NCBI GenBank assembly: GCA_963605225.1
Contig: CAVCUC010000001.1
Span: 1-63,424 of the forward strand
Reading direction: 5' to 3'
DNA length: 63,424 nucleotides
Source: a bacterium
GTDB taxonomy: Bacteria > Bacillota_I > Bacilli_A > Erysipelotrichales > Erysipelotrichaceae
Under the pieces are notes generated by a model. It was not told where the DNA came from, searched no databases, and saw only the letters and a program-made list of their open reading frames with translations. Position 1 is the first letter of the stretch. Each line of letters begins with the position of its first letter. The position numbers and the translations under genes were made by a program. Of the stretch, positions 27,409 through 31,647 are shown piece after piece.

Positions 27409-27946
27409 TTAATTAATCGAAATAAATTCAGATTCAACAGAAGGAATTACTCCCTCTATCCATTGATTCAAGAAAAATCATTTTCCTTAGAAAATTCATT
27501 AATCAAATTATGACCGTGCTTTATTTCTATTTCTTCCGAAAATGCAGTATTGTTTTTTTTAATAGATATCTTTATTTTCTAAGTGAAATATAATTGCTCT
27601 TGTCACCCACATTTCATAGTTTTTATTAGAAATCGTTACTTTTTGGTGTTCATTTACCAAAGTGATTTTTCTTATTTTTTCATCAACCGGTGTATCAATT
27701 TGTTTTACATTTTCAAAAAATAAATGAATATCGTTTTGCCCAACTTTTTTAAATGTCCATAAAGCAACATCGTCAATTGAATCAAAATATAATATTGATT
27801 TTTGCTCATTTAAAAGTCCATAAATCAATAATCCCTGGCCCACTACTTGTATATTCAAATGGATCACAACGATATTTTTTGAAAAGTTTTCCAATTAATG
27901 GCTTAAACTTTGATTCTTCTAATCTAAAATCTTGTGCATTGCTCAT
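27409..27946 (-). pseudogene. Frameshifted hypothetical protein, possible orphan immunity gene
   Basis: RBS plus ATG at 27946 gives MSNAQDFRLEESKFKPLIGKLFKKYRCDPFEYTSS. Coding-like sequence continues in the 27559..27894 frame, then in shifted frames as NTAFSEEIEIKHGHNLINEF and NQWIEGVIPSVESEFISIN* ending at 27409. Confidence 0.65.
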
Positions 27947-28066: not shown

Positions 28067-28600
28067 TCAGTTAATGATAATGGATAGTTTTTTACCGTCA
28101 AATGGATTTCCCCAACCATTTTTTTCTGTAAATTTAGAGAATGAAACGGCAGTAGGATCTGGCAATTCAATATTATTGTCTTTAAGGATTTTGGCAGCAG
28201 AACAAACCAGTTTAATACTTTCTTTTCCTTCCTCAGGTATAGACATATAAGAATATACCATTGCGATTTTCGTAGGGATAACCATTAATTTTTCCATATT
28301 TTTATCAATATCCTTCAAAAAATCAGAATAATAATTGTAATCTTGTTCTGAAAGATATTCAAACTGTGCGTCTTTATAGTTATCAAACTCATATAAATAT
28401 TCCGGAAGAATCTCCATGAATCGATAATACCATTCATCAAAATAGTCGGAAGTACATTTCCACATCCATGTAAATAAAGGTTTCCAATTCTTTTCCGGAT
28501 ATTTTGCTAGTGCATATCTTTCAGCACACATGATTGTATACGCAATTCTTCCACTTAAAGAAATATCTGAAAAATCAAAATTCATTTTAGATAACATCAT
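28067..28600 (-). CDS. Putative immunity protein for the upstream deaminase toxin
   Basis: Acidic/aromatic 177-aa soluble protein. Its ATG overlaps the toxin stop (ATGA). Function is inferred from position. Confidence 0.6.
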   Translation of the reverse strand: MMLSKMNFDFSDISLSGRIAYTIMCAERYALAKYPEKNWKPLFTWMWKCTSDYFDEWYYRFMEILPEYLYEFDNYKDAQFEYLSEQDYNYYSDFLKDIDKNMEKLMVIPTKIAMVYSYMSIPEEGKESIKLVCSAAKILKDNNIELPDPTAVSFSKFTEKNGWGNPFDGKKLSIIIN

Positions 28601-29103
28601 TTTTTACCATCCTTCCATCCCGTATAGTTTTCTTTAATTTTTCCTCTTAGAGTAAAGGTACAATTTTCACACGCTTCTTTCGGTTTCCCAAAATCGCGTT
28701 TTGTTGTATGAATTGTATACAACTTTAGATTTTTCAAATCAGCTCCATCGTTTAGAGCTTTATTAACAGCGTGCATTTCGGCACAATTACCAAGTGAGAG
28801 TCTATTTAAAGATTCTTTCGGCAATAAACCCGGGTGTATATTATCTCCAAAAAGAACTGTATTTTTCTCTTCGTGATCAATTTCAATACCGTGGTTACGC
28901 CCATTATAATACTTTCCAGTACTTTCATCATAGACAACCGTGGCAGTATTGAACTTTTCACGTTGTCTTTTAGAGATTTTGTTCAAATGCTCAGCCGTAT
29001 CCCTTGCCCAAGAAGTTATATGAGATTGCATTTGCTTTGAGGACCCTTTATATATCCTCTCGCCCTTTGTACCTAGAAATAACCCACTATATCCCTTACT
29101 CAT
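28597..29103 (-). CDS. YwqJ-like nucleic-acid deaminase toxin domain with a short Gly-rich leader
   Basis: Zn-deaminase motifs GNCAEMHAVNKAL and ACENC (CxE...CxxC); N-terminus MSKGYSGLFLGTKG. Confidence 0.78.
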   Translation of the reverse strand: MSKGYSGLFLGTKGERIYKGSSKQMQSHITSWARDTAEHLNKISKRQREKFNTATVVYDESTGKYYNGRNHGIEIDHEEKNTVLFGDNIHPGLLPKESLNRLSLGNCAEMHAVNKALNDGADLKNLKLYTIHTTKRDFGKPKEACENCTFTLRGKIKENYTGWKDGKK

Positions 29104-29821
29104 GATTTAGCCTTTCTTCATAAGCAATAGCTGTACGACTTTTGTAATCGACAATATTAATTCCTTTCTCTCGAAGAACATCAAATATAGGATAATTTGC
29201 AGAGCCATATACAAGAATGGTATGTGGATAAAGATAATCAACCATTGCTAAAATTCCCTCTTCAAAACGATTTCTATCGACCAGTTTTCTAGGGCTACCG
29301 CCGACGGTTCCTATTGCAATAACACTGTTTTTATCAATTCCATCGAAGCTATATGAATAAGTGTTTGAATAACCCCAACGGACATTATTTACAACTTCAA
29401 GTCCATTCTTTCCAATCCAATAACCAAACGCACGCATACGATATGTATTAAAACGATTAATCGGATCAGGAAAATCAACATATGTAGAATAATCAACAGT
29501 TATAATTCCTTTAAAATGTTTCAATATTTGCATAGCTCTTTTTGGGTGCCACCAAACACCAGAAACTAATCCATCAAATTTATAGTCATCAATATAGAAA
29601 CAAACAAACGCGTCCACATAGAAATCCTTTCTTTTACGGATTTTCTTTGCATATATCGTTTTTGCTTCCTCCCAAGTAATAATTTTCCTTGGAATAGAGC
29701 TGAGTATAGTCGGACAATAAGGAATATCATTTTCTTTAGAGAAAATCGCTCCATCGACCATTGTTGAATTCCATAAATCTTTCAGTCCAACACGAATCAA
29801 AGTATTGTTTTTGTTTTTCAT
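29096..29821 (-). CDS. DUF4417-family protein
   Basis: FYIDDYKF, DYSTYVDFP, NTYR, NNVRWG, SFDG, AIGTVG, ILVYG. RBS AGGAGG upstream. Confidence 0.85.
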   Translation of the reverse strand: MKNKNNTLIRVGLKDLWNSTMVDGAIFSKENDIPYCPTILSSIPRKIITWEEAKTIYAKKIRKRKDFYVDAFVCFYIDDYKFDGLVSGVWWHPKRAMQILKHFKGIITVDYSTYVDFPDPINRFNTYRMRAFGYWIGKNGLEVVNNVRWGYSNTYSYSFDGIDKNSVIAIGTVGGSPRKLVDRNRFEEGILAMVDYLYPHTILVYGSANYPIFDVLREKGINIVDYKSRTAIAYEERLNHE

Positions 29822-29863: not shown

Positions 29864-29948
29864 TTTACGATTGGGAGAAGAAGTCTCTAGATGGTAAAAT
29901 TAAAATGGATTTTTACAATGTCAGTCTATTAAGAAAGCTGCGTTCTTA

Positions 29949-29990
29949 CATTGGCGCAACATTGCGAAAATATTGCAAAACATTGCAAAA
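29949..29990 (+). repeat. Helically phased short direct repeats upstream of the macrodomain gene
   Basis: CATTGGCGCAA CATTGCGAAAA TATTGCAAAA CATTGCAAAA; ATTG cores at 29950, 29961, 29972 and 29982. Confidence 0.7.
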
Positions 29991-30003
29991 AGGAGAAATA
30001 TTA

Positions 30004-31125
30004 TTGAACTACGGAAATTTTCTGAAAAGACTAAAACCCTACTGTATAAATAAATCAATAAAAAATGAAACACTTGTTAATGAACCGATAGCAATTATCA
30101 TAGAAAACGCCAGGTTAAAAAAAGAAAAAGGAACATCTAAAGGTGAAACATTTTATTATGAAACAACTGAAGCAAGTAGGATTATTAATAACCGGTTAGA
30201 ACTATCTGATAAAATTAGAAATGCTTTGGAGCTGTATAATATGGAAGAATGTATCATAAAAGAATTTGATGCATTTTATGATACGTATATAAATAAAAGT
30301 AAAGTTCATGATATGGTCGATGAGTATCTAAAAGCCATACGAAATGATTCATCTTTTCAAAAACATGAACTTGAAGATATCGAATGTTGTATAACAAAAC
30401 CAAGCTTGTTTATGGCAAAGATACTTATTAAATCTTTGAAAGAACCAAATTATATAGATAACTCTGAATATTCAACCATTTGGTCATGCAGTAATCGTTG
30501 TATCAATGTAATAAATGGAGATATTTTCACTTATGCTCTTGGAAGGCGTAGGAGAAAAAAGCGCATTGTTGTCATTCCGGTAAATACATCCTTTGATACT
30601 CATGTAACTACTAAATTAGAAAAAGAAGCAAATCCGTTAGTTTCTATCAATACTCTTCACGGAAAACTTCTGATACGGTTGTCCAAAAAAGGTTTATCAG
30701 AAGCCGAAGTTATTGAAAGAGTCAAAAATAATCTTTTGATTAATAATCTTATTTCTGAGAACAGTCAAAATTTAGCTTTACCTATAGGAACAATAGCCAC
30801 TCTAGATTTCGATGAAGCAATATTTTATTTATTAGCTATCTCAAAATTTGACGAAAACAATAATGCGCATAGTTCAAAAGAAGACATTCGAAATGCAATT
30901 CAAAATTTGATTGTTTATTATGATCAAAAAGGACAAGGATATGATTTATATCTCCCTCTCATTGGAACCGGAATGTCCAGAGCAAATTTAAGCTATCAGG
31001 AATCGTATAATCTAATCGTCAGCATCTTTTTAGAAAACAAAGATAGAATATCCGGCAAGATAAATATTGTAATTCAGCCAGAAGTAGAAGTTGTTAAAAA
31101 TCAAATTTTAGAAAGGAATAAATAA
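30004..31125 (+). CDS. Thoeris ThsA-type macrodomain (DUF6430-like) protein with a soluble N-terminal domain
   Basis: C-terminal half has INVINGDIF, VVIPVNTSFDT, TLHG, PIGTIA, FYLLAISKFD and LPLIGTGMSR. The first ~150 aa contain no hydrophobic helix. Probable start TTG 30004, 8 nt after AGGAG (ORF track start 29905). Confidence 0.8.
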   Translation: MNYGNFLKRLKPYCINKSIKNETLVNEPIAIIIENARLKKEKGTSKGETFYYETTEASRIINNRLELSDKIRNALELYNMEECIIKEFDAFYDTYINKSKVHDMVDEYLKAIRNDSSFQKHELEDIECCITKPSLFMAKILIKSLKEPNYIDNSEYSTIWSCSNRCINVINGDIFTYALGRRRRKKRIVVIPVNTSFDTHVTTKLEKEANPLVSINTLHGKLLIRLSKKGLSEAEVIERVKNNLLINNLISENSQNLALPIGTIATLDFDEAIFYLLAISKFDENNNAHSSKEDIRNAIQNLIVYYDQKGQGYDLYLPLIGTGMSRANLSYQESYNLIVSIFLENKDRISGKINIVIQPEVEVVKNQILERNK

Positions 31126-31128
31126 TAT

Positions 31129-31647
31129 ATGGGTTATTACAGAACAAGAATATATCTTGCTGCGGACTGGGATAGTGATAAAGAAGTAATCAATAAATTG
31201 AGAGAATGGAATAATAGCAACTTTTGGAATTTGAATTTTTCTGACGCTCATGATTTGACTCAATCATCAGATAACAGTTTGAATTGCACAATAAAATCTT
31301 CTCTTTCTGATAGAATGAATGCATCCAAAACGTTTGTTCTCGTTATTGGGCGAAAAACTAAGAACTTGCAATCTGGGAATTGTTACCTTTGCAGTTGGTA
31401 TAGTATACACCATCAAACATGCTTAAAAAGATTCTCAATAAGCAATAAAAGTTATATTGAATACGAATGCGATAAGGCTATTAGGGATGGGCTGAAAATA
31501 ATTGTATTATATAATTATTCTTATGTTGATAGAACTAAATGCCCTGATGCCGTAAAATACAAAGGAAAACATATTGCCGCTTACCATTGGGATAACTTTA
31601 TAAAAAAATGGAATTATTCTGAAATCAGAGATGCCATAATGTATTGA
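31129..31647 (+). CDS. Thoeris ThsB-like TIR-domain protein
   Basis: YLAADWD, FSDAHD, RMNASKTFVLVIG, SYIEYE (putative catalytic Glu), IIVLYN; starts 3 nt after the macrodomain gene. Confidence 0.82.
   Translation: MGYYRTRIYLAADWDSDKEVINKLREWNNSNFWNLNFSDAHDLTQSSDNSLNCTIKSSLSDRMNASKTFVLVIGRKTKNLQSGNCYLCSWYSIHHQTCLKRFSISNKSYIEYECDKAIRDGLKIIVLYNYSYVDRTKCPDAVKYKGKHIAAYHWDNFIKKWNYSEIRDAIMY

Follow-up and report, generated by a model that had tools for sequence, protein, structure and literature searches.

The Thoeris effectors characterised so far act, as described in the available portions of the literature, directly: as NADase, membrane pore, protease, channel or hydrolase. In type II Thoeris, represented by ThsA/ThsC and ThsB of Bacillus amyloliquefaciens Y2 (PDB 8R66) and by the Escherichia coli CFT073 system (8V6Q/8V6T), a ThsA-type Macro protein and an adjacent TIR protein with a Tyr/Glu active site form a two-gene operon (bioRxiv 10.1101/2024.01.03.573942, PMC11204291), and the effector carries two N-terminal transmembrane (TM) helices. 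Here, we describe a likewise arranged gene pair in a 63,424-nucleotide stretch of an Erysipelotrichaceae genome (assembly GCA_963605225.1, contig CAVCUC010000001.1, positions 1 to 63,424; the whole stretch is referred to as the window), in which the TM helices are replaced by a soluble domain of 150 amino acids, the N domain, in a protein that we call N-Macro. The Macro residues that bind the ribose and the His carboxylate of the type II signal, His-ADP-ribose (His-ADPR), are kept. The N-Macro/TIR pair would sense like type II Thoeris, but it is not a member of that type because the membrane effector that defines it is absent; N-Macro loci differ from it further in their operator-like repeats, in a fixed divergent operon encoding a DUF4417 protein, a toxin-like and an immunity-like protein, and in the variable residue at the position of the adenine-stacking tyrosine. 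Judged from its sequence, the pair is a real, conserved and apparently undescribed form of TIR-Macro signalling whose output is probably transcriptional.

Control of a neighbouring defence operon through DNA binding, as we propose for N-Macro, is described for CapH+CapP, CapW/BrxR, CapK+CapS and RptR (PMC13373217, PMC12255303). RptR is reported to bind three direct repeats with palindromes inside them in its own promoter (PMC12255303), whereas the N-Macro repeats have no evident palindromes, and CapP, CapW and CapK are described as responding to single-stranded DNA, whereas the input to N-Macro would be a TIR-made nucleotide perceived through the fused Macro domain. The broadest Thoeris survey (bioRxiv 10.64898/2025.12.03.692087) recognises 29 putative types; its main text, as far as available, names Macro solely as the pore of type II and does not mention helix-turn-helix (HTH) domains, and its Fig. 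1C or Table S1 may include the N-Macro form. No literature on a soluble HTH-Macro ThsA was found, as judged from titles and the starts of abstracts and with subscription papers largely uncovered. New here are the repeats upstream of N-Macro, the toxin cassette head-to-head with it and the occurrence of this cassette elsewhere behind IrrE/ImmA regulators.

Domain make-up, sensing arm and conservation of the pair

The two open reading frames (ORFs) are separated by 3 nt (Table 1), and they, this gap and the motifs quoted for them in an initial annotation, made from the letters alone, are all present in the translations. Translation of N-Macro likely begins at TTG 30004, giving a product of 373 amino acids, because 9 of 12 aligned homologs begin there and AGGAG precedes it at 29991; ATG 29905 was dropped as a start on the homolog alignment. 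Macro residues are numbered below on the 406-residue ORF and N-domain residues on the 373-residue product. The C-terminal part of N-Macro matches Pfam ThsA_Macro (PF20016, E 2.6e-30) and, from profile position 75 on, the PADLOC ThsA model PDLC00408 (E 2.2e-58), and its best Foldseek matches are the solved Macro domains of EcThsA, BaThsA and PcThsA (8V6Q, 8R66, 8V6R, 8V6S; E<=3.5e-10 for 8V6Q and 8R66). The second gene matches ThsB_TIR (PF08937, E 5.9e-10) and, over residues 4-170, the PADLOC ThsB model PDLC00427 (E 5.4e-71). Pfam, PADLOC and Foldseek therefore agree with the annotation in calling a ThsA-type Macro gene followed by a ThsB-like TIR gene, the PADLOC run that it had proposed recognising the Macro and TIR parts, and the glutamate that it had singled out in YIEYE is, at the end of that motif, the invariant active-site E113.

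The N-terminal 160 residues are hydrophilic, with a maximal 19-residue Kyte-Doolittle mean of 0.95, and match nothing in Pfam, NCBIfam or PADLOC, and the AlphaFold2 model of the N domain is confident (pLDDT 90.6, pTM 0.85), all-helical, soluble and globular, with one hairpin. The absence of a TM helix, judged from hydropathy and this model together, and of any known effector motif bears out what had been noted for the first ~150 residues. No SIR2-SLOG or caspase-like effector was found, ThsA_Macro being the sole Pfam match at E<=1 and Macro ThsA models the only PADLOC matches. The first ~75 residues of the N domain carry a net charge of +5, and its second half is acidic (-5).

In BaThsA, His-ADPR is reported to be contacted by D100, N133, Q135, S194, R240 and Y277 (bioRxiv 10.1101/2024.01.03.573942). 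Alignment to 8R66, which covers residues 223-360, equates N133 with H252, S194 with S313 and R240 with R359; D206 (for D100) and Q391 lie outside it and were placed by motif and by column. Among 100 soluble rows, D206 is kept in 94, H252 in 100, S313 in 94 and R359 in 99, and histidine also stands at the N133 position in 28 of 30 TM homologs. TIR residues Y9 and E113 are present in all 19 TIRs of soluble systems and all 26 of membrane systems, and Y9 aligns with the active-site tyrosine of EcThsB2 (8V6T, E 1.1e-5), a residue reported, in section 11 of PMC11204291, only in ThsB of TM-Macro systems. The partner TIRs of N-Macro are single-domain and, in a quick tree, fall among TIRs partnered with membrane ThsA. 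Judged by these residues, the sensing arm looks intact. The window's TIR also contains cysteines at 85, 88, 98, 114 and 138, a possible zinc site, which are invariant across the 19 TIRs of soluble systems and occur in 11-13 of the 26 from membrane systems.

A profile built from 10 N domains and searched against 1.84 billion representatives at 50% identity matched 379 clusters at E<=0.001 and 141 at 1e-10. A Macro domain is present in 78 of the best 150 matches (in 65 of the 91 with at least 300 amino acids, many of the others being fragments), and these best matches hold 65 full-length N-Macro clusters at 50% identity. The named N-Macro loci come from Erysipelotrichaceae, Lachnospiraceae and Clostridiales. 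N-Macro is rare: among 301 genomes of the family to which the window belongs, 3 gave a match, one of them spurious and dropped (G150, where it ran across stops in an unrelated ORF). The N domain in any fusion was matched in 6 of 399 and 11 of 401 genomes of two wider samples, G319 and G363 being left unscored in the first; the match in G417 is weak. The maximal N-terminal hydropathy of 79 soluble relatives, near-copies included, is 0.37-1.95, with two at 1.6 or above; the 30 membrane ThsA controls were picked by a hydropathy of at least 1.8, so that their own range is no test.

In a quick Macro tree, midpoint-rooted only, a branch with SH-aLRT 87, set among membrane forms, has the 100 soluble rows on one side. 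The dN/dS ratio is 0.05-0.19 wherever dS is finite (7 pairs), rough values since dS is near saturation, and the HTH-like half is as conserved as the Macro domain; on these estimates, all parts of the pair are under purifying selection. A TIR gene starts within 30 nt of 18 of the 22 unique N-Macro ORFs, the four others being one at a contig end (L061), one that is frameshifted (L089) and two copies in L011, whose TIRs are more than 1.3 kb off. With an N-terminus without TM helix, matching Macro profiles and an adjacent TIR, the central proposal of the annotation, that the sensor was kept and the output module replaced, stands.

Some relatives are arranged differently. L011:1756-9061 is a duplicated block with two N-Macro and two TIR copies and immunity-like genes, the first N-Macro copy being devoid of most of the HTH-like half; L073:3773-5179 is a 468-residue ORF with membrane ThsA and TIR in one frame, which may be a fusion or result from a lost stop; and the single locus found on viral contigs is of the membrane type.

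Operator-like repeats, the divergent cassette and the N domain elsewhere

Four tandem direct repeats lie ahead of N-Macro, between a candidate rightward promoter and the ribosome-binding site; such repeats occur once in the 63-kb window and 26 times in the 2.15-Mb genome. The promoter calls are weak, a consensus scan giving 15 sites against 30.2 in shuffles and hence matches not above chance. Repeats within 80 nt of the gene start, at a shuffle p<=0.05, precede 15 of 21 N-Macro genes and none of 26 membrane ThsA genes. Over whole loci, in a count made after the 80-nt test and partly by inspection, there are 13 matches in 186 kb of N-Macro loci, 7 in 138 kb of other N fusions (14 loci) and 2 in 269 kb of membrane ThsA loci (39 loci). 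Of the seven, those in L116, L118 and L124 stand immediately ahead of the N gene and that in L119 ahead of the operon containing it; in L117 and L120, the repeats are found past a Lamassu operon and in front of the next one, and in L121 elsewhere. Because six of the seven flank the N gene or its operon in intergenic DNA, compared with 2 matches in 39 TM-Macro loci, the repeats appear to track the N domain rather than Macro and TIR. From clade to clade, the repeat core varies in step with the putative recognition helix, kin sharing both, so that these are not independent changes. At L186:1953-3010, strong repeats separate a DUF4417 cassette from two divergently oriented ORFs, a weakly N-like one of 116 amino acids and a 231-residue homolog of the cargo of N fusion P0109 (PADLOC PDC-S50-like).

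The operon that diverges from these repeats in the window begins with a DUF4417 gene, for which the profile found no solved relative by sequence. DUF4417 stands head-to-head with 18 of the 20 N-Macro genes that have at least 500 nt upstream and with none of 25 membrane ThsA genes. Three toxin-like types occur behind one constant leader, two deaminase-like and one PBECR nuclease-like, and each has its own downstream gene family; in its constant leader, exchangeable toxin and co-changing downstream gene, the operon has what appears from sequence to be the layout of polymorphic toxin-immunity systems. Both this operon and the repeats, which the initial annotation overlooked, are probably part of the system.

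We also picked 60 loci by DUF4417 alone, taking the 30 top matches of either search (the two matched 32 of 301 and 34 of 301 genomes), and scored the longest upstream ORF of at least 100 amino acids, available in 57 of them. An IrrE/ImmA peptidase is encoded there at 23 loci and a Fic protein at 3; at 2 loci each, the ORF is divergent and encodes an HTH_3 or an N-domain protein, and the remaining ORFs are phage-related, housekeeping or unmatched. The two divergent N-domain cases are L152, an N-Macro locus already known, and L183, an N-LmuA fusion behind a small HTH gene (E 4e-9); at L147, repeats accompany an ORF whose likeness to the N domain is weak and not significant (E 0.026). With IrrE/ImmA modules in N-Macro's slot ahead of 23 of 57 cassettes, the DUF4417 cassette would therefore commonly be under stress-sensing switches of the CapH/CapP kind, and N-Macro with its TIR would fill that slot here. 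In a Pfam scan, no cassette ORF was a Peptidase_M78, so it is the regulator slot and not the parts that is common with CapH+CapP. Cassettes of DUF4417, leader-tagged toxin and immunity gene (L126-L185) are present in about 1 in 10 of the genomes searched, often following XRE plus IrrE/ImmA modules, and the window's own genome has three DUF4417 genes (the others including G000:C5:1978-2454 and G000:C67:1069-1563). DUF4417 was also observed paired with glycine-tagged proteins.

The N domain is a module common to several defence systems, a point also missed before. Fusions join it to LmuA of ABC-3C/Lamassu systems (with CTD6 in 8 and with CTD11 in 4 of the best 150 matches), to Hachiman HamA ahead of the HamB helicase (L039, L040, L049), to NACHT and STAND ATPases (L043, L048, L052) and to unknown cargo. 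Some of these carriers, HamA and HNH-like LmuA, bring a nuclease of their own, as would suit a regulator, and others are without any further output domain. The ABC-3C classification of Krishnan et al. 2020 may already annotate the domain. Homologous N-terminal domains, unnamed in the models, are covered by PADLOC PDLC03857 (LmuA) and PDLC00164 (HamA); the sensors of these systems, an SMC ATPase and a helicase, differ from that of N-Macro. One Lamassu clade is said to have lost its effector (bioRxiv 10.1101/2025.04.02.646746).

In the Lamassu operons at L038:6216-9443, L117:2577-5801 and L120:167-3457, LmuA consists of N domain and CTD6 only, with no enzyme. Between lmuB and the operon that follows, just past lmuB, stand tandem repeats, and in L038 and L120 this following operon leads to a sigma-like gene; in these Lamassu forms, the N domain may control a prophage-like element. 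In L039:3217-4677, L040:5290-6825 and L122:5225-6724, where the N domain precedes HamA, weak 11-bp repeats lie past hamB in L039 and L122, and another element is inserted at that place in L040.

Conservation of the N domain peaks in a basic stretch resembling an XRE recognition helix around Ser58, which is kept in 99% of 144 rows. Aligned with HHalign to a profile of 17 XRE sequences, residues 1-78 score P 7.6e-4 (probability 25%, 26 columns), or P 3.4e-4 (38%) when the hairpin columns are masked; none of 44 control profiles reaches P 7.6e-4, the best scoring 0.036. The XRE-HTH identity of the N domain is thus a lead, not an assignment. The earlier guess of an HTH-like, signal-sensing regulator has accordingly found circumstantial backing in the operator-like repeats and the regulator slot of the toxin cassette, and has not been upheld by any HTH family or fold match.

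A proposed signal-gated switch and its rivals

We consider the chances even that the TIR signal switches a Macro-gated transcription factor controlling its own operon and the toxin cassette. On phage infection, the TIR protein would make His-ADPR or a close relative from NAD+, as its family and Tyr9/Glu113 suggest, and the Macro domain, with its conserved pocket, would bind this product and change its oligomeric state, in the way that type II ThsA Macro domains are reported to form open-ended oligomers on ligand binding (PMC11204291). The N domain, as a degenerate XRE-type HTH, would bind its co-occurring 10-11 bp repeats in the DNA that separates the operons; from the position of these repeats, past the promoter and ahead of the ribosome-binding site, N-Macro would repress its own gene, and it would control the divergent operon. 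The signal would then change how the HTH-like domain holds the repeats, and thereby the transcription of cassette and pair, the toxin cassette being the real effector arm; the switch could de-repress or activate, and the outcome could be self-arrest or an attack on phage nucleic acid or on neighbours. DNA binding at the repeats is the part in which we have good confidence, and signal-dependent control of the divergent cassette is one that could go either way. More tentatively, and at slightly less than an even chance, we propose that this is the first TIR/Thoeris system with a transcription-factor receptor, in which His-ADPR acts through a Macro-gated HTH on a swappable toxin cassette, and that the same HTH module, with repeats of its own, wires the Lamassu, Hachiman and STAND phage sensors of Bacillota to gene expression from toxin cassettes or prophage-like elements. 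Gating of an HTH transcription factor by a nucleotide-binding domain is known from Csa3 (CARF-HTH, in type III CRISPR) and NrtR (an ADP-ribose-sensing Nudix-HTH repressor), whose sensor folds and signals differ from those of N-Macro and which are not known to be linked to a TIR enzyme.

Several observations weigh against a Macro-gated transcription factor. At the Y277 position, just 17 of the 100 soluble rows have Tyr, compared with 25 of 30 TM rows, and the window's protein has Gln, so that the ligand may differ. No HTH family was found in Pfam or PHROGs among the 10 and 37 N-domain members scanned, nor in distant members; Foldseek of the N model gave no PDB match at E<=0.001; and a wide VIA fold search listed no XRE chain, its best Z being 3.8 in a range (below 4) that is background for helical models, with several CARD/death-like chains at Z 2.7-3.1 on the C-terminal half. 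Searches of viral models gave nothing clear, those of N profiles against the sequences of solved structures only noise, and ESM Atlas no usable match for the window's N domain, the nearest model for P0107 being a CTD11 cluster (TM 0.54, from a low-confidence model); an absent fold match does not exclude family membership. The XRE likeness itself is weak, its controls being unmatched for helical content. At the promoters, no leftward promoter was identified for the divergent operon, and the 80-nt repeat test, which preceded the partly visual whole-locus count, is positive at only 1 of 11 other N fusions. Most DUF4417 cassettes are without an N gene, L011 has two N-Macro copies without DUF4417 or clear repeats, and the co-transcribed immunity gene argues against simple suicide, under which it would be unexplained. 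All N-Macro loci are kin, so that the counts given here are not counts of independent events.

N-Macro might instead be the killer, its Macro domains polymerising on the signal so that a filament binds and blocks the DNA of host or phage, with repeats that serve autoregulation and a cassette that is a passenger. The N domain alone occupies the effector slot of LmuA-CTD6, LmuA-CTD11 and STAND proteins, all of them activated by oligomerisation, the open-ended oligomers reported for ThsA Macro (PMC11204291) would suit such a filament, and L011 is without the cassette; we nevertheless regard it as unlikely, since the cassette is head-to-head in 18 of 20 loci across families despite swapped toxin types and the N domain is also carried by HamA and HNH-like LmuA, which bear nucleases already. 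Somewhat less likely still is that the TIR protein is itself the effector, depleting NAD+, or serves another effector in trans, with N-Macro as the feedback controller of its own operon. Such a role would suit repeats placed between the rightward promoter and the ribosome-binding site, and there are known cases of a controller fused to, or next to, a defence operon (RptR, CapH/CapP, CapK/CapS; PMC12255303, PMC13373217), but the single-domain TIRs group with membrane-ThsA partners, a class described as signal makers, and the fixed divergent cassette would be left unexplained.

That the N domain is an interaction or oligomerisation adaptor of a death-like or effector-associated kind, the repeats being bound by another factor of a mobile element, seems improbable to us. 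The CARD/death-like chains among the weak VIA rows, the lack of an HTH family match and the repeats ahead of sigma-like genes in prophage-like loci speak for an adaptor; against it, those Z scores are at background, no sigma-like gene or other regulator is seen beside the repeats of N-Macro loci, and it is the basic, XRE-like helix that is most conserved. A decaying or accidental fusion, left by type II Thoeris after loss of the membrane anchor, is largely refuted by conservation and scarcely credible: a few loci are frameshifted or truncated (L089, the first L011 copy) and the family is rare, yet there are 65 full-length clusters on one side of a Macro-tree branch, with an intact pocket and purifying selection.

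If the transcription-factor reading is correct, a receptor that turns a TIR signal into transcription would be a new class of Thoeris output. TIR signalling reprogrammes transcription in plants and animals, and N-Macro would be a parallel. It would also provide a trigger for uncharacterised DUF4417-toxin cassettes and a function for the unnamed domain of Lamassu and Hachiman variants. The Yirmiya preprint states that there is no enzyme-based assay for His-ADPR, and a soluble His-ADPR receptor with a short operator would be a useful reporter tool.

Feature coordinates and genomic setting

Table 1. Positions of the N-Macro/TIR pair, the divergent operon and the elements between them, numbered on the window
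Feature	Coordinates	Strand	Remarks
Small unannotated ORF ending the divergent operon	27559..27894	-	similar DNA beside a DUF4417 gene in same-genus genome G197
Immunity-like gene	28067..28600	-	family changes with toxin type; putative immunity role, no family match
Polymorphic toxin-like gene	28597..29103	-	conserved short N-terminal leader and YwqJ-like deaminase domain, PF14431 E 4.5e-6
DUF4417 gene, first of the divergent operon	29096..29821	-	E 4.1e-35
Candidate sigma-70 promoter of the N-Macro/TIR operon	29871..29900	+	extended -10; consensus match only
Four tandem direct repeats, candidate operator	29948..29990	+	10-11 bp period; TTG cores 29951, 29962, 29973, 29983
Ribosome-binding site (AGGAG)	29991..29995	+	directly past the repeats
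N-domain and ThsA-type Macro gene (N-Macro)	30004..31125	+	373 aa from TTG 30004; 406 aa from ATG 29905
Soluble all-helical N domain	30004..30450	+	XRE-HTH-like first ~75 residues, hairpin insert, near-invariant Ser58
Macro domain	30502..31077	+	His-ADPR pocket residues retained: D206, H252, S313, R359
ThsB-type TIR gene	31129..31647	+	active-site Tyr9 and Glu113, Cys-rich insert

The locus lies ~2 kb downstream of rlmH in a variable region, with a GC content resembling that of its flanks. The segment 27174-33590, downstream of rlmH and a DUF4230 gene, holds the cassette and a beta-glucoside phosphotransferase system operon, and the same-genus genome G042 carries a different gene at this site. 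Elsewhere in the window's genome (L026:814-1806, on G000:C33), a 330-residue protein with a start that is Macro-like by eye and a C-terminal HTH_3 match represents a second, unrelated Macro-HTH fusion.
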